Program-made: the position numbers and the translations under genes
Part shown: piece after piece, positions 55,067 through 62,005 of the stretch
How the letters are laid out: every line of letters begins with the position of its first letter
Numbering within the stretch: the stretch's first letter is position 1
Notes under the pieces: generated by a model
What the model was told of the DNA's origin: nothing
Database searches by the model: none
The model's input: the letters and a program-made list of their open reading frames with translations, nothing else
From: an uncultured Candidatus Saccharibacteria bacterium
GTDB taxonomy: Bacteria > Patescibacteriota > Minisyncoccia > Minisyncoccales > UBA1441
Direction: 5' to 3'
Length of the DNA stretch: 62,434 nucleotides
NCBI GenBank assembly: GCA_964647465.1
Contig: CAZYFS010000002.1
Span: 1 to 62,434, forward strand

Positions 55067-55378
55067 TTAGTTAAGCTCCCCTTTTTGTTCTTCGGTTGAA
55101 TTTGTTTTAACAATTTTAATCGCCCGTCCTTCGATTAAAGCACGAGTTATTTTTTTATAAGCCGAAGATAAGATCCTCTGCAAGGTACTTTGAGAAGTAT
55201 TCATTTTCTCGGCTACCGCTTGTTGATTTAGATTTTCTATATTTTTTAGCCTCAAAGCTTCTATCTCTTCCGTCGTTAGTTCGGTTACCTTGAGATGCAT
55301 CATCGGAACTCCTAAGGGTTTAAAATAAGTAATGTCCGGAGAAAAACTAACTCTTCGACAAAGTCTCGGTCTTGACAT
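55067..55378 (-). CDS. DUF134 (UPF0251) family predicted DNA-binding protein, copy 2
   Basis: Identical to copy 1. Confidence 0.75.
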   Translation of the reverse strand: MSRPRLCRRVSFSPDITYFKPLGVPMMHLKVTELTTEEIEALRLKNIENLNQQAVAEKMNTSQSTLQRILSSAYKKITRALIEGRAIKIVKTNSTEEQKGELN

Positions 55379-55445
55379 AATAATTAATTGTTCAAAGAAA
55401 AAGATTTCCCGACTCCTCAAATTAAGAAGTCGGGAATAATCTTTT

Positions 55446-55712
55446 TTATTTCTGGTTCTCTATTTCTGCTAAGCGCTCTTTGATTGCTTTCAATTCTTCT
55501 TCCAAGGAAGTTGCTTCATCTGTCAACATTTCGTTTTCTTCTCGGCGAGTGAAAAATCGGCGACCAAGTCTTGGTCCATAACCGTATCCACTACCGTATC
55601 CAGCTCCGTATCCTCCTCCGTATCCTCCTCGAGCACCTGCTCCACAGGGACCTACTCCTCGTCCAGTTCCTGCTCCTAATCCAGCAGGTCCAGATCCATC
55701 AAATCTTGGCAT
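55446..55712 (-). CDS. DUF5320 family protein, copy 2
   Basis: Identical to copy 1. Confidence 0.7.
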   Translation of the reverse strand: MPRFDGSGPAGLGAGTGRGVGPCGAGARGGYGGGYGAGYGSGYGYGPRLGRRFFTRREENEMLTDEATSLEEELKAIKERLAEIENQK

Positions 55713-55876
55713 AATTGTTTTATAGTTTTAATTTTTTCTTAATAGTTCGACTTTTATAATAACTATTATAATGAGTATATACCCACAACAATATCTTGTC
55801 AAGTCCCAATTGTTCTATTTTTAATTTATTACTTTGCCAAGAATTAGCTTTTCTTTTAAAGCTTTTAGCTTTTTTA

Positions 55877-56068
55877 CTACTCCAAAGTAATAGCTGCAAC
55901 GGGACAAGCTTTTATCGCTTGTTCTATGCATTCAGCATCCGCATTTTTAACTTTTGATTTTCCGTCAATGATTTCAAAGCCTTCTGGGCATACACTTTGG
56001 CAAGCACCACAGCCAAAACATTTGGTTCTGTCAATTTTTACTTTTTGATTTGTTTTATTATTTTCCAT
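55877..56068 (-). CDS. small 4Fe-4S ferredoxin, copy 2
   Basis: Identical to copy 1. Confidence 0.75.
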   Translation of the reverse strand: MENNKTNQKVKIDRTKCFGCGACQSVCPEGFEIIDGKSKVKNADAECIEQAIKACPVAAITLE

Positions 56069-56140
56069 AATTAAAATTTTAATAATACACAATTAATAAC
56101 CTAATCTCTGTTTTGAATTTATGTCTAAAAAAATAACTTA

Positions 56141-56806
56141 TTAATATAAAATTTCGATACTGGAAACATCAAAATTCTCGTATCCTCTGTGAATTATTTT
56201 CATCCCCAAAAAGAGCGGCTTAGTATTATCTGCCATTATTTCTAAAAAATAAAATTTCTCTTCGTTTTCAAAAAGTTTTGCACTACAGTCGTTCGAAATA
56301 GTTAGTAGACTTAAAGTAAAAACGTTATTCGTTTTTTGAACAGATCCAATATTAAAATCTTCTTCTTTTCTAGCAGAGATATTCGGAAGGGGCTTCTCCT
56401 CTTTTTTGACTTGAGAGGATTTTCTATGAGATAGCGGTAGATTTATTCCATCTTTCTCTTCGGCGTCCTTAATCTTCGCTCTTACGTTTTTTGCTGAACT
56501 AAATCCCACATTTTTAATATTCAGATCATATCCTTTCTGCTCCTCCTCGCCATTGTCTTTTTGAGTTAACTCCTGTTTAATCATTGGGCGAAATATGGGC
56601 ATAAAGAATGATTTTCTTATTAACGATTGAAATGCGATTCCCGCAACAGCTAGAAGAGCAATGCTTATAATAATCCACTCAACTCCCTTTCCTAAAAGAA
56701 ATAAGATAAGCGGAATCGAACATAATATTACCAATAAGAAAAATGGGTAATATTTTTCTGAACTATGTTCTCTTATAAAAAATCCTACTAATTCTTTTTG
56801 TTTCAT
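56141..56806 (-). CDS. membrane-anchored protein, unknown function
   Basis: 221 aa with two N-terminal TM helices, a K/E-rich linker and a C-terminal ~70-aa domain with no motif I recognise. Confidence 0.45.
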   Translation of the reverse strand: MKQKELVGFFIREHSSEKYYPFFLLVILCSIPLILFLLGKGVEWIIISIALLAVAGIAFQSLIRKSFFMPIFRPMIKQELTQKDNGEEEQKGYDLNIKNVGFSSAKNVRAKIKDAEEKDGINLPLSHRKSSQVKKEEKPLPNISARKEEDFNIGSVQKTNNVFTLSLLTISNDCSAKLFENEEKFYFLEIMADNTKPLFLGMKIIHRGYENFDVSSIEILY

Positions 56807-58286: not shown

Positions 58287-58314
58287 TTGATTTAAAAACG
58301 GCATCTGCTACAAT
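58287..58314 (+). promoter_or_regulatory. sigma70-like promoter of cspA
   Basis: TTGATT, a 16-nt spacer, then TACAAT. This leaves a ~100-nt 5' UTR before ATG 58423. Confidence 0.45.
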
Positions 58315-58422
58315 CACTCTGTTAGATATTTTAAACTCATTAAAAATCTAATGCTTGGGTAAGGACGGAAAATAAGTCGACTTTCTAGTTATTACTATAG
58401 GCTAGTCATTTAATCATAATTT

Positions 58423-58620
58423 ATGCAAGGAACCATCAAAAAGTTGACTGATAAAAACTTTGGTTTTATAGCTCAAGAAGATAGCGAGCAAGATTTATTC
58501 TTTCACGCTAACGAATTAGCAGGAATTGAGTTCAGCGACTTGAAAGAAGGTGACGCAGTTACTTTTGAAGTGAAAGACACTCCAAAAGGACCAGCTGCAG
58601 TAGAAGTTAAAAAAGCTTAA
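58423..58620 (+). CDS. cspA: cold-shock protein (CSD)
   Basis: 65 aa with the RNP1-like motif KNFGFI and the RNP2-like motif DLFFH. Confidence 0.9.
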   Translation: MQGTIKKLTDKNFGFIAQEDSEQDLFFHANELAGIEFSDLKEGDAVTFEVKDTPKGPAAVEVKKA

Positions 58621-58644
58621 CTCACTTTCAATCAAAATAAAGCA

Positions 58645-58672
58645 AAAAGCCACTCTTCGGAGTGGTTTTTTG
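58645..58672 (+). terminator. intrinsic terminator of cspA
   Basis: The stem CCACTC-ttcg-GAGTGG is followed by TTTTTT. Confidence 0.7.
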
Positions 58673-58881
58673 GTTTATGCCTATAATTCTCCGAACCATG
58701 AACAGAATCTGAACTTTTTTTCAAAGAAAATCCTAAATAATTAGCTTCACCATATCATCGTCCTCACTCTTCGAGCAACTGCCCAACCAAAAATACGGCT
58801 TGTTTATATCCGTCATCGTTTTTCCATTTCTCCGTAAATTATAGCGCCATATCTGTGAGTCCTATTGTTAATAAGTTGTAT

Positions 58882-58910
58882 TTGCATTTTCGAAATAGTT
58901 TCAATATAAT
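58882..58910 (+). promoter_or_regulatory. near-consensus sigma70 promoter of the LexA-methyltransferase fusion gene
   Basis: TTGCAT (58882-87), a 17-nt spacer, then TATAAT (58905-10). The palindrome TTTCGAAA (58889-58896) sits in the spacer, and a second TCGAAA is at 58922-58927. Confidence 0.55.
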
Positions 58911-58967
58911 GTTATTGTAGTCGAAAGTAATTAGAAAATCCAACCTAAGAATTTTCAAGACGAAAAT

Positions 58968-60509
58968 ATGGTCACAAAAAGACAAAAAGAAGTTTTAAAT
59001 TTTATTGAGAAATACAAAAAGAAGGAAAGCTATGCTCCCTCTCTTGAAGATATAAAAAAACATTTGAAACTTTCTTCCGTTTCTACCGCTCATTACCATA
59101 TCAAAAAACTGGAAGGGCTTGGTCTATTGCGAAAAGGCGAACATCAACCTCGCTCAATGGTGACAACAAGAGAAAAACAAATGATGAGTGTTCCAATTAT
59201 TGGAACAATCTCTGCTGGACGACCAATTGAAGCTATAGAGTTTTCAGACGGTGCGGTTTTAATGGACAAACGGAGTTATAGCACAAATGATAATTTTTAT
59301 GCCCTGCGAGTGACTGGCAACAGTATGATTGATGAGGGTATTTTTGACAAAGACATTGTAGTAATAAAAAAACAAGCTAGTGCAGAAAACGGACAAACAG
59401 TCGTAGCAATTATTGACGATAATCAAGCAACCTTAAAAAAACTTTATCATTTAGAGAACAGATTTAAACTTGTGCCTGCAAATCAAAACATGTTGCCGTT
59501 TTACAGAAAGGAAGTTGAGGTACGTGGGGTAGTTGTAAAAATAATTAGAAATTTAGAACCACAAAAAAAATTACGGACTTTGGATTTATTTGCTGGAATT
59601 GGTGGAATAAGACTTGGCTTTGAAAAAGCCGGATTTGATACTGTTTTCGCAAATGATTTTGAGAAACAATGCAAAGCAACATATGACGAAAATTTTGATA
59701 CTTGTAAACTTGTTGTCGAGGACATAACAAAAATAGAGCCTGAGGATTTACCAGAATTTGATTTTTTGCTTGCTGGTTTCCCATGTCAGCCATTTTCTGT
59801 TGCAGGATATAGACAAGGATTTAAAGATGAAAAAGGACGAGGTAATTTATTTTTTTATATAGCAAGAATTATCAAAGAAAGACAACCCAAAGGCTTTTTG
59901 CTAGAAAATGTAAAAAATTTAAGAGGTCATGACGGTGGTAAAACATTTGAAATTATTGAGCAAACATTAAAAGATCTCGGCTATCATTTAAAATCAAAGA
60001 TTTTAAACAGTATGGAATATGGAAATATTCCACAAAACAGAGAGAGAATTTATATAGTTGGTTTTAAAAACAAAAAGCATGCAGACAATTTTATCTTCCC
60101 AAAGAAAAAAAAGCTTGTCACAAAAGTAACTGATTTATTGGAAAAAAATGTTTCCGAAAAATATTATTACAATGGAAAGCCATTGTATGAAAGAATAAAA
60201 AATGATGTAAAAGAAGAAGGAAAAGTTTATCAATGGCGCAGAAAGTATGTGCGTGAAAATAAAAGCGGCGTTTGCCCAACACTAACAGCAAACATGGGAA
60301 CAGGGGGGCATAATGTACCAATCATAAAAGACAAAAAAGGAATTAGAAAACTAACTCCTCTTGAGTGTGCTCGTATTCAAGGTTTTCCAATGAATTTCAA
60401 ATTACCAGATTTGGCAGATTCTGCTTTGTATAAACAGTTTGGCAATTCTGTAACTGTAAGTGTAGTTGAAGCGGTAGCAAGAGAGATTAAAAAGGCTATC
60501 AATAGTTAA
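58968..60509 (+). CDS. fusion protein: LexA-like repressor (wHTH plus S24 autopeptidase) joined to a DNA (cytosine-5)-methyltransferase
   Basis: 513 aa. Residues 1-~197 are LexA-like: RQKEVLNFI...STAHYHIKKLEGLGLL, the cleavage-site context GTISAGRPIEA (A83-G84), the GNSM serine (S119) and TLKKL (K157). Residues ~203-513 are Dcm-like: motif I LDLFAGIGG, IV GFPCQPFS, VI LLENV, VIII QNRERIYIVGF and X QFGNSVTV. Confidence 0.85.
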   Translation: MVTKRQKEVLNFIEKYKKKESYAPSLEDIKKHLKLSSVSTAHYHIKKLEGLGLLRKGEHQPRSMVTTREKQMMSVPIIGTISAGRPIEAIEFSDGAVLMDKRSYSTNDNFYALRVTGNSMIDEGIFDKDIVVIKKQASAENGQTVVAIIDDNQATLKKLYHLENRFKLVPANQNMLPFYRKEVEVRGVVVKIIRNLEPQKKLRTLDLFAGIGGIRLGFEKAGFDTVFANDFEKQCKATYDENFDTCKLVVEDITKIEPEDLPEFDFLLAGFPCQPFSVAGYRQGFKDEKGRGNLFFYIARIIKERQPKGFLLENVKNLRGHDGGKTFEIIEQTLKDLGYHLKSKILNSMEYGNIPQNRERIYIVGFKNKKHADNFIFPKKKKLVTKVTDLLEKNVSEKYYYNGKPLYERIKNDVKEEGKVYQWRRKYVRENKSGVCPTLTANMGTGGHNVPIIKDKKGIRKLTPLECARIQGFPMNFKLPDLADSALYKQFGNSVTVSVVEAVAREIKKAINS

Positions 60510-61372
60510 AGCTTAACAAGAAGCTCCTTCCAGTCTTCGTCGGAATTATGCAACTTACTTGCTGATTTTACATATCTGTGTCCATTGCTAAATTCTTGCC
60601 TTGGAATTTTAGTAACCTTTTCTAATTCATCTACATATACAAAGCCACAGATCCACACAGGGACACTTTCTAGTTTTTCAATTTTTTTAAAATTAGAATT
60701 TTTTTCAAAAAACTTTCTAACTTTTCCAAAAAAGGAGTGTTCTCGTAGAATTCTAAATAGATGATCGCTAGGCAAGCCAACTCTTGCAAAAATATAGACG
60801 TCACTTTTACGATTACTTAACTCCACTTCATTTGCTCCAAGAACAAGAAAGGCATTTTTCATTTTACTAGCCTTCACGCCAACTCCAAGATTTGGTTGTC
60901 TAAAAGTATTGCCATCTTTAATTTTATCAAAATCCTGTGGTGTTATTTCCCCTGGATGAACACTTTCGTCTAGCTCGATGTCCGTTGAAAATTTTTGTGA
61001 TAAAAAATTCTTAACTGCGTGTTCAGCCAATATACCAAGAATTACATCGTCAGTAGCTTGCACTTCGGTTCTTTGGCCTCTTATGCCATTTAGTGATAAT
61101 CCGCCATAAACCATTTTAATTGCAAATTCAAAACAAGCCTCATATTCTGCCATGGTTAAATTAACGGTCCTCTCTTCTTTTGAACGCTTCCAAGAAGATA
61201 GAAAACTTTTATTAAAAGACCATCCCCCTCTTATCTTTTTGCCAATAATTTCTTTGCTGGCTTTATGATAATTATCAAATTCCTTTTCAGTAATTCCAAG
61301 AAATTCTATGGCGCTTTTTCTGCTTAACTTATCATGAACTTCAGTTGCGGAGGCTTTTTTCATACATTTCAT
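60506..61372 (-). CDS. putative type II restriction endonuclease with an N-terminal excisionase-type HTH
   Basis: 288 aa, convergent with the methyltransferase gene and overlapping it by 4 nt. The N-terminus AIEFLGITEKEFDNYHK...KIRGGWSFNKSFLSSW is HTH_17-like. The core has a possible PD-(D/E)xK arrangement (AEHAV...PQDFD...GVKASK). The nuclease call is by context. Confidence 0.5.
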   Translation of the reverse strand: MKCMKKASATEVHDKLSRKSAIEFLGITEKEFDNYHKASKEIIGKKIRGGWSFNKSFLSSWKRSKEERTVNLTMAEYEACFEFAIKMVYGGLSLNGIRGQRTEVQATDDVILGILAEHAVKNFLSQKFSTDIELDESVHPGEITPQDFDKIKDGNTFRQPNLGVGVKASKMKNAFLVLGANEVELSNRKSDVYIFARVGLPSDHLFRILREHSFFGKVRKFFEKNSNFKKIEKLESVPVWICGFVYVDELEKVTKIPRQEFSNGHRYVKSASKLHNSDEDWKELLVKL

Positions 61373-61377
61373 TCTAC

Positions 61378-61410
61378 CAAAAAAACCACCCCTATTACAA
61401 GGTGGTTGGG
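61378..61410 (-). terminator. terminator-like hairpin plus U7, 6 nt upstream of the endonuclease start codon
   Basis: The minus strand reads AACCACC-ttgtaataggg-GGTGGTT followed by TTTTTGGTAGA and the ATG. Confidence 0.45.
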
Positions 61411-61502
61411 ATTGCTCCCTCTATTAAACGCATTTAGAACTATAAATTGGAAAGAAATTAGGGAAGAAATAAGAAAATTACAGCCTATTCCGGCGAGAAC
61501 TC

Positions 61503-61541
61503 AAATAAAAAGAGTGGGCTCCAATCGTCTGATTGAAGCCC
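61503..61541 (-). terminator. intrinsic terminator of the NUDIX gene
   Basis: The minus strand reads GGGCTTCAAT-cagacg-ATTGGAGCCC (9/10 bp) followed by ACTCTTTTTATTT. Confidence 0.6.
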
Positions 61542-61552
61542 CTTCTTGTGCA

Positions 61553-62005
61553 TCATCGCACTTCCTTAAAGACATCGAGCGGGTACGGATCCCCTGTCAG
61601 CCAGTCCATCAGGACTCTGGCAGAATACTCTGGCCGGTAGAGCTGATTTGACGCAAGCAGAGCCCGCACTTCTTTTCTGGAGAACCAACGAATCTCGGCA
61701 ATCTCGGCGATTCGAGGATTTTCCTCTCCACCCACGATACAACCAGCAAATACGAAAGCAATCCTTACCGCTCCTTCCTTGGGGCGATTATACACCCCTA
61801 CTAGGCCAAAGAGAGTTATCTCATAGCCCGTTTCTTCTTTTGTCTCTCGCTTGGCACCGTCCAGAATCACTTCCCCTGGCAAGAGGTGCCCAGCTGGAAT
61901 ACTCCATTTTCCGCCTTTTTCTTCAACTTGCCTCACACAGAGAAGTTTGCCATTGTTCTCTATGCAAACACCGACAGATACACCCGTAGTAGATTCACTC
62001 GTCAT
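61553..62005 (-). CDS. NUDIX hydrolase
   Basis: 150 aa with the Nudix box GHLLPGEVILDGAKRETKEETGYE and the strong SD AAGGAGG upstream. GC is about 50% by spot count. Confidence 0.85.
   Translation of the reverse strand: MTSESTTGVSVGVCIENNGKLLCVRQVEEKGGKWSIPAGHLLPGEVILDGAKRETKEETGYEITLFGLVGVYNRPKEGAVRIAFVFAGCIVGGEENPRIAEIAEIRWFSRKEVRALLASNQLYRPEYSARVLMDWLTGDPYPLDVFKEVR

Follow-up and report, generated by a model that had tools for sequence, protein, structure and literature searches.

Restriction-modification (R-M) systems must make their methyltransferase before their endonuclease and never let methylation lapse. The controls known to us, i.e., C proteins, methyltransferases with a short helix-turn-helix (HTH), and antisense RNAs, are closed loops without signal input. 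Fusion of the methyltransferase to an intact LexA would equip a type II system with a damage sensor of its own. Here, we describe a gene of this kind at positions 58968 to 60509 (+ strand) of a 62,434-nt contig from an uncultured Candidatus Saccharibacteria bacterium (GenBank assembly GCA_964647465.1, contig CAZYFS010000002.1), the whole of which is hereafter called the window. Its 513-aa product joins a complete LexA winged helix to an S24 self-cleavage apparatus and a C5 cytosine methyltransferase, both intact.

The SsoII-type C5 methyltransferases (M.SsoII, M.Ecl18kI, M.EcoRII, M.MspI, and M.ScrFIA) carry an N-terminal DNA-binding extension that binds their own promoter and sets the methyltransferase-to-endonuclease balance (PMC3874152). 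The fusion likewise combines an N-terminal DNA-binding region with a C5 methyltransferase and appears to act on its own promoter, binding being suggested by the covariation described below. However, the SsoII-type extension is a short HTH (~70 aa) without protease or signal input, and its operator is an inverted repeat between divergent genes, whereas the fusion has a 200-aa LexA plus S24 module, a direct-repeat operator, and a convergent gene arrangement with overlapping stop codons. C proteins, too, are small regulators dedicated to R-M systems; they set the timing of methyltransferase and endonuclease expression and can be grouped by operator specificity. However, these Cro/CI-type HTH proteins of ~80 aa act mainly as activators of the endonuclease gene, and no C-protein gene (small HTH_3 controller) was found between 60506 and 61553 of the window.

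With LexA itself (E. coli, Thermotoga maritima; MEROPS S24; TIGR00498), the fusion shares a full-length match that includes the winged helix, hinge, Ala-Gly bond, Ser/Lys dyad, and residue numbering, as well as an operator overlapping its own promoter. Unlike LexA, it bears a 310-aa C-terminal enzyme, has its operator only at its own promoter in the available sequence, and sits in a mobile R-M cassette with no visible SOS regulon. Binding of LexA to the direct repeat GTTC-N7-GTTC, with an 11-bp period, is established in Alphaproteobacteria (PMC8565304). That box resembles the operator of the fusion in its direct repeat, period, TTC core, and recognition by a LexA dimer; the half-site of the fusion, in contrast, is TTC[G/T]NN, belongs to another clade, and occurs in three specificity classes that track the recognition helix. 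Mobile-element S24 repressors (lambda CI, SetR of SXT, and phage LexA-like proteins) are also self-cleaving and sense a host RecA signal, but they are free-standing and control lysis, excision, or transfer genes, whereas the repressor of the fusion is covalently joined to the enzyme it would regulate. The closest functional analogue of the loop proposed here is type I restriction alleviation (EcoKI, ClpXP-dependent), in which, according to PMC11109961, unmethylated host DNA is shielded for a time from the cell's own restriction enzyme after DNA damage or recombination. It works through ClpXP proteolysis of the restriction subunit, unlike the proposed self-cleavage of a repressor acting via transcription.

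The fusion gene starts at ATG 58968 and ends with TAA at 60507 to 60509. The LexA winged-helix DNA-binding domain (residues 1 to 65; 58968 to 59162, +) matched Pfam LexA_DNA_bind (PF01726, residues 3 to 62, E 4e-13) and contains the recognition helix S39-T-A-H-Y-H-I-K-K-L48. The S24 autopeptidase and dimerization domain (residues 76 to 196; 59193 to 59555, +) matched Peptidase_S24 (residues 76 to 190, E 1e-25), and the LexA equivalog model of NCBIfam (TIGR00498) was matched at 163.9 bits against a cutoff of 110.95, covering model positions 4 to 202 of 203. All elements of the S24 mechanism, the scissile Ala-Gly bond in the hinge, the Ser nucleophile, and the Lys general base, were read from the sequence as I81-S82-A83-G84, G117-N118-S119-M120, and T155-L156-K157-K158. 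A phmmer alignment placed A83-G84 on A84-G85 of E. coli LexA, S119 on S119, and K157 on K156; the predicted self-cleavage codons lie at 59214 to 59219 (+) and those of Ser119 and Lys157 at 59322 to 59324 and 59436 to 59438.

The C5 cytosine methyltransferase domain (residues 204 to 513; 59577 to 60506, +) matched Pfam DNA_methylase (PF00145, residues 203 to 509, E 1e-96), PADLOC MTase_II (1e-122), and the NCBIfam dcm model TIGR00675 (339 bits), and its closest solved structure is M.HhaI (E 9e-63). Motifs I (LDLFAGIGG, 205 to 213), IV (GFPCQPFS, 270 to 277, with the catalytic Cys273 encoded at 59784 to 59786), VI (ENV, 313 to 315), VIII (QNRERIYIVGF, 356 to 366), and X (GNSVTV, 492 to 497) occur in canonical order. 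An earlier note, made from the letters of the window alone, had read the open reading frame as a complete LexA joined by a short linker to a complete Dcm-type enzyme; the Pfam and NCBIfam profiles agree for all three domains, its residue numbers (83-84, 119, and 157) are exact in the alignment to E. coli LexA, and the five motifs it listed all fall within residues 205 to 497. The linker (residues 197 to 203; 59556 to 59576, +) was the most variable stretch across the 119 homologues described below, with 39% identity to the window protein. An AlphaFold model of the fusion showed three folded units and a floppy linker, with the lowest confidence (pLDDT, the AlphaFold confidence score, <50) at residues 196 to 200.

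In 5.8 billion proteins, at least 120 protein clusters were listed as homologues, 119 of them full length. Among the matches listed, these 119 were 509 to 540 aa long, shared 67 to 91% identity with the window protein, came from independent assemblies (NCBI, JGI, ENA, and Logan), and all carried the three Pfam domains in one frame. Residue A83 was conserved in 117 of 119, G84 and S119 in all 119, and K157 in 117; the PCQ, ENV, QNRER, and GNSV motifs of the methyltransferase were invariant. The cleavage site and catalytic dyad are essentially invariant across relatives and, judged by this conservation, under selection. No internal Met was conserved at the LexA-methyltransferase junction in these 119 sequences, so the methyltransferase can be made only as a fusion. 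At 83% identity to that of the window protein, the target-recognition region speaks for a single specificity throughout the family.

When one genome per species was scanned, 496 relatives were found, the best 80 of which were used for locus comparisons; in these 80, the alignment spans residue 1 or 2 through 510 to 513 at 63 to 88% identity. Their carriers belong to Paceibacteria, Moranbacteria, Uhrbacteria, Shapirobacteria, Kaiserbacteria, Nomurabacteria, Giovannonibacteria, Staskawiczbacteria, and further Patescibacteria. Some loci are filed under other taxa, namely Promethearchaeota Loki_b32 (L083), Gammaproteobacteria (L013, L016, L028, and others), and Bdellovibrionales (L020, L043, and L084), with fusions typical of the Patescibacteria type, and these labels probably reflect binning or labeling errors rather than true host range. 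The fused form was absent from 72,556 plasmid (PLSDB) and 50,697 phage GenBank records, which explains why it escaped experimental work. A phage origin was considered and rejected, as the best 80 IMG/VR viral-contig matches cover the methyltransferase part only; these unfused C5 orthologues share 62 to 68% identity and begin exactly at the linker.

The promoter of the fusion gene (58882 to 58910, +), with −35 TTGCAT at 58882 to 58887, a 17-nt spacer, and −10 TATAAT at 58905 to 58910, was the best sigma-70-like site within 58300 to 61900 (10 of 12 matches). Two operators were recognized there. O1 (58889 to 58905, +), the direct repeat TTCGAA-N5-TTCAAT with a period of 11, fills the −35/−10 spacer, and O2 (58920 to 58936, − strand), TTCTAA-N5-TTCGAC, is inverted relative to O1 and lies over the expected transcription start and 5' untranslated region. 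A position weight matrix (PWM) built from related operators scored O2 at 24.4 bits (58918 to 58939), the top score in the window, and O1 at 18.4 bits (58886 to 58907); the next match outside the fusion promoter reached 13.7 bits and lay within an open reading frame. The same O1 plus O2 layout recurs in L001, L005, L008, L011, L020, and L028. The region 58880 to 58970, which the earlier note had singled out for footprinting, therefore holds a conserved operator overlapping the promoter. A palindromic Gram-positive-type LexA box (CGAAC-N4-GTTCG), also sought in that region, was absent, the conserved element being the direct repeat.

In an alignment of the 150 nt upstream of the gene from the 80 nonidentical loci, a TTC[G/T]NN-N5-TTC[G/T]NN direct repeat with an 11-bp period was present in 77. 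The operator ended one base or less from a TAnnnT −10 hexamer in 65 of the 80 related loci and hence fills the 17-nt spacer. Across 1.29 Mb of flanking sequence, the TTCGGN-N5-TTCGGN form was matched 57 times: 54 matches fell at the fusion's own promoter by start calls, two more did so once a start called too far upstream was allowed for, and only one lay elsewhere. No further convincing operator was found by PWM in the window or by regular expression in the flanks. An operator private to the fusion promoter in the available sequence is thus supported, which points to a controller dedicated to the R-M system rather than to a global SOS repressor. By the same scans, control of an SOS regulon, as would be expected of a conventional LexA, was not seen, whereas an operator in its own promoter, as in LexA autoregulation, was found computationally.

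A perfect DnaA-box 9-mer (TGTGGATAA / TTATCCACA) was also observed upstream of the −35 hexamer in 46 of 80 C5-fusion promoters, which together hold 46 of the 83 copies present in 1.24 Mb. It occurs at loci L003-L085 and L166-L220, ~45 to 60 nt upstream of the −10 (for example, 'CTGTGGATAACTACCGCTTTGAAT...' in L055), and its 3' end precedes the first operator half-site by 11 to 15 nt, most often 13, in 35 of 42 cases. The box also precedes fusions to other methyltransferase classes; it does not precede distant standalone lexA genes, and it is absent from the window itself. Its placement suggests that DnaA or replication feeds into the expression of the methyltransferase.

To establish which protein reads the repeat, we compared the recognition helix with the half-site in 139 nonredundant loci. 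Helices of the form x-H-[E/Q]-H paired with TTCGG in 85 of 88 loci, x-H-K-H with TTCGC in 14 of 15, and x-H-[F/Y/H]-[H/Y] with TTCTA or TTCGA in 34 of 34. In the window, helix A-H-Y-H, with Tyr43 between the two histidines, is accompanied by TTCGA/TTCTA-type half-sites, of which one, TTCAAT, deviates. The same pairs were found with C5, N4, and N6 methyltransferase partners and in unfused relatives; since they recur across methyltransferase classes, the correlation is not merely shared descent of one gene family. This covariation, the strongest evidence available, supports the view that the cis-encoded LexA domain, and not a host factor, reads the repeat. The LexA domain very probably represses its own gene. 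The recognition code appears simple, with one helix residue tracking two operator bases, and the LexA modules would form a natural set of orthogonal, cleavable repressor-operator pairs and a clean setting in which to study the recognition of direct repeats by LexA dimers.

Standalone LexA genes on high-GC soil metagenome contigs (L226-L245), encoding proteins 42 to 44% identical to the module, carry TTCGCT-N5-TTCGCC in their own promoters, so that the direct-repeat LexA box predates the R-M-linked clade and extends beyond it. One of them (L235), a standalone LexA gene for which no repeat was found, adjoins a dinB-like gene.

Convergent to the fusion lies a candidate type II restriction endonuclease gene (60506 to 61372, −; 288 aa), and the two stop codons overlap in the palindrome TTAA at 60506 to 60509. 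The endonuclease candidate matched PADLOC REase_II (PDLC03411, E 4e-9) over residues 95 to 213 and had no Pfam match; none of its 358 homologues bears a name. Its AlphaFold model (pLDDT 83) gave no significant full-length Foldseek match in the PDB, where only the N terminus resembled a MerR/excisionase-like winged helix, so the endonuclease call draws on the PADLOC match and gene position. By these features, the methyltransferase gene adjoining a candidate endonuclease gene, the window cassette is a predicted type II R-M system.

This arrangement is widespread among relatives. The downstream neighbor was convergent and abutting in 79 of 80 C5 loci, and these neighbors form seven families unrelated by BLAST, five of which have endonuclease matches: Bsp6I-like proteins (23 loci; Pfam RE_Bsp6I 1.6e-12, PADLOC REase_II 7e-31), the window type of 288 aa (13 loci; REase_II 4e-9), PDDEXK_5 proteins (11 loci; Pfam 6e-9), NgoFVII-like proteins (6 loci; Pfam RE_NgoFVII_C 1.4e-13, REase_II 1e-110), and proteins of ~349 aa (5 loci; REase_II 5e-4, the same model as the window type). 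No endonuclease evidence was obtained for the remaining families of ~354 aa (12 loci) and ~281 aa (9 loci). From REBASE, we take the specificities of Bsp6I and NgoFVII to be GCNGC and GCSGC, respectively, and the partner families suggest a methyltransferase target of GCNGC or GCSGC type. In the window, GCNGC was only mildly depleted (observed/expected ratio of 0.80), to a degree shared with several unrelated palindromes, and so gave no clue to specificity. A Vsr mismatch-repair gene occurs upstream in 10 loci, which fits active 5-methylcytosine formation; apart from Vsr, upstream neighbors vary, with 60 families in 71 loci. Besides their LexA fusion, L001 and L005 carry a gene for a C-like HTH protein upstream of that for the endonuclease.

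Nucleotide comparison (blastn) with related loci delimited a conserved R-M cassette at 58864 to 61330, comprising promoter and operators, fusion gene, and convergent endonuclease gene. Homology begins at ~58864 to 58866, just 5' of the −35, and ends at ~60499 to 60511 in relatives with other endonucleases and at ~61327 in those with the same endonuclease. Since the end depends on whether the endonuclease is shared, methyltransferase and endonuclease modules are shuffled at the tail-to-tail junction. The nearest methyltransferase relatives (L005, L020, and L174; 81 to 83% DNA identity) match the window only up to the stop-codon junction, and L005 carries an endonuclease family other than that of the window. 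On this comparison, the overlapping-stop junction (60506 to 60509 in the window, with equivalents in L001-L085) is a module-swap point. The flanks of related loci contain recombinases, toxins, Fic, DpnI-like, and defense genes. In the window, the cassette lies between unrelated housekeeping genes (CspA, 58423 to 58620; NUDIX, 61553 to 62005) in an ordinary chromosomal stretch with RarA, RNase P RNA, and tRNAs, and the base composition of cassette and flanks shows no clear difference.

A search of 1.84 billion representative proteins with only residues 1 to 200, the LexA module, returned 156 matches at E < 1e-30. In the best 150 of these, all 58 proteins of at least 260 aa have LexA_DNA_bind plus S24, nearly all N-terminal, and their other domains were N6_N4_Mtase (31), D12/Dam (7), Eco57I (7), N6_Mtase (5), MmeI_Mtase (4), C5 (3), and TaqI_C (2). 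Residues A83, G84, S119, and K157 were invariant in all 58 of these distant fusions. The module thus occurs fused to at least six methyltransferase families, N6_N4_Mtase, D12/Dam, Eco57I, N6_Mtase, MmeI, and C5. Fusions of 270 to 890 aa to at least six unrelated methyltransferase families, with cleavage site and dyad kept, were observed in P0121-P0260 and L166-L219. A distance tree separated the cluster of fused modules, within which the methyltransferase classes are mixed, from ~60 standalone LexA proteins. In 80 metagenome loci fetched with the module, the same operator type preceded every fusion class, and fusions of other classes had a convergent abutting neighbor in 26 of 30 cases. A LexA clade shared across methyltransferase families points to functional linkage in the Rosetta-stone sense.

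Unfused two-gene versions were also seen, in which a 196- to 207-aa LexA-like gene is separated by 0 to 30 nt from one or two methyltransferase genes downstream on its strand (L168, 773 to 3887; L214, 1465 to 3181; L218, 1726 to 4599). The fusions may descend from such arrangements, or the latter may have arisen by splitting of fusions. Database names of relatives include 'transcriptional repressor LexA', 'DNA adenine methylase', and 'hypothetical protein', and the named relatives are almost all Patescibacteria, with one Omnitrophota metagenome-assembled genome. Many Patescibacteria entries under the first of these names would therefore be R-M components, which matters for reconstruction of the SOS network in this group.

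Methyltransferases with N-terminal HTH domains are known to autoregulate, convergent promoters interfere in EcoRI, and unbalanced R-M activity induces SOS (PMC3874152). Taken as a whole, we consider the following chain slightly favored: the methyltransferase would hold down its own synthesis until S24 self-cleavage lifts the repression, giving a damage-triggered shift to protection. When the cassette enters a naive cell, the unrepressed fusion promoter would fire first, and its transcription would run antisense into the endonuclease gene, since the two genes abut and leave no room for a terminator. Early firing together with antisense transcription would let methylation precede restriction. 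Accumulated fusion protein would then shut its own promoter, allowing the endonuclease gene to be expressed. An S24-activating signal, most likely RecA on single-stranded DNA after damage, including breaks made by its own endonuclease at unmethylated sites, would cause the fusion to cut itself at Ala83-Gly84, releasing the DNA-binding domain and derepressing the promoter. Methyltransferase output would rise, from both new fusion protein and the S24-methyltransferase fragment, and convergent transcription would meanwhile lower endonuclease expression. The net effect would be a damage-triggered shift to protection, a type II counterpart of type I restriction alleviation. As R-M imbalance induces SOS and convergent EcoRI promoters interfere, the proposed loop would sense self-restriction.

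The individual steps carry different weight. The fusion is likely competent for self-cleavage, given its intact site and dyad, and RecA is a reasonably probable trigger. The coupling of an S24-activating signal to R-M control, first proposed in the earlier note, gains support from the conserved Ala-Gly bond and dyad, the operator, and the convergent endonuclease, with cleavage and trigger as its conditional steps. Two further proposals of that note, that the fused LexA domain serves as R-M gene control and that the gene lies in an R-M system, were strengthened by the operator that covaries with the recognition helix and by the PADLOC assignment of the convergent neighbor as a type II restriction enzyme candidate.

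Several points weigh against this chain. Cleavage, trigger, and outcome are its inferred steps, and neither recA nor a second lexA was seen in the window or the fetched flanks, the presence of RecA in this genome being assumed from general knowledge of Patescibacteria. The S24 part of the AlphaFold model has moderate confidence (pLDDT 50 to 70), and a 310-aa C-terminal extension on S24 could hinder dimerization or cleavage. No operator was found at the endonuclease promoter in the window PWM and flank scans, so endonuclease control would depend on convergent geometry alone. If the S24-methyltransferase fragment were degraded after cleavage, like E. coli LexA fragments, the outcome would be reversed. 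Finally, more methyltransferase during phage-induced damage would weaken defense.

The best-surviving alternative, though an unlikely one, is a damage- or infection-triggered suicide, in which cleavage marks the methyltransferase 'antitoxin' for breakdown or inactivation and the stable endonuclease, cutting unmethylated DNA as it is made, kills the damaged or infected cell, as in abortive infection or postsegregational killing. A Val-Ala-Ala end targets the N-fragment of E. coli LexA to ClpXP, and the resembling Ile-Ala-Ala would form the postcleavage C terminus in most homologues (position 82 is Ala in 73 of 119). R-M systems are also known to behave as toxin-antitoxin modules (PMC3874152). 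However, that degron would end up on the DNA-binding fragment rather than on the one with the methyltransferase, new methyltransferase synthesis would be derepressed as the repressor is lost, and the Vsr partners and broad chromosomal spread fit long-term maintenance.

Somewhat more doubtful is a purely constitutive autoregulator, in which the LexA module, co-opted for DNA binding as a dimer, sets a steady methyltransferase level as in SsoII-type enzymes, with S24 needed for dimerization only and left uncut in vivo. In its favor, no part of the whole model has better support than the autoregulatory operator, and RecA and SOS genes were not seen nearby. Yet a domain kept only for dimerization needs no Ala-Gly bond, Ser119, or Lys157, all of which are retained, almost without exception, in the 119 close and 58 distant fusions to six methyltransferase families.

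That the protein is a general SOS repressor with an incidental methyltransferase, and that recA, uvr, and polymerase genes at other sites of the genome are under its control, is highly improbable. Its NCBIfam score exceeds the lexA equivalog cutoff, NCBI names homologues accordingly, and no other lexA is visible in the window, which is the 62 kb that the operator scan of the source genome covers. Nevertheless, neither that scan nor the flanks, with their single match off the fusion promoter, revealed a wider regulon; the upstream neighbors are variable and include recombinase, toxin, and defense genes; the fused modules cluster apart from standalone LexA; and diversified operator specificities are hard to square with a conserved regulon. 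The concern, raised in the earlier note, that lexA and dcm are separate genes merged by a sequencing or assembly artifact (frameshift or chimera), for which only the rarity of the architecture in cultured organisms speaks, is refuted with near certainty by comparison, the in-frame fusion recurring in at least 120 clusters from independent assemblies, 119 of them full length in one frame, and in at least 80 species-level genomes.

The fusion can be regarded as an autoregulatory methyltransferase of known kind, newly equipped with a signal-responsive, self-cleaving repressor. No description of a LexA-methyltransferase fusion was found in the searchable literature or in the 2013 review of R-M regulation (PMC3874152), a coverage that did not extend to Sanchez-Osuna et al. 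2017 on the Patescibacteria SOS network. The earlier note had held that its claim would fall if the architecture were already widespread and characterized; it is indeed widespread, in uncultured Patescibacteria, but no characterization was found. The self-cleavage loop favored above would link self-inflicted or external DNA damage to the balance of methylation and restriction by a testable route. More tentatively, with chances that we place somewhat short of even, Patescibacteria may have turned the SOS sensor into a portable R-M control module: a dedicated LexA clade, diversified into three or more operator specificities and either fused to or sharing operons with six or more unrelated methyltransferase families, in which a RecA signal, including one from self-restriction, would cut off the repressor so that methylation transiently exceeds restriction, and in which the DnaA box of most promoters would tie protection to both damage and replication initiation.

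Elsewhere in the window, a 221-aa open reading frame (56141 to 56806, −) between the ferredoxin and RarA genes had no Pfam or PADLOC match, and its N-terminal half looks hydrophobic and membrane-protein-like. At the contig end, 61300 to 62434 has a G+C content of 0.47 compared with ~0.35 before it; no Rfam family was matched there, and several long open reading frames on both strands overlap the NUDIX hydrolase gene (−). At 55067 to 56092 (−) lies a small gene cluster unrelated to the fusion, encoding a DUF134 protein (putatively DNA-binding), a glycine/tyrosine-rich DUF5320 protein, and a 4Fe-4S ferredoxin.

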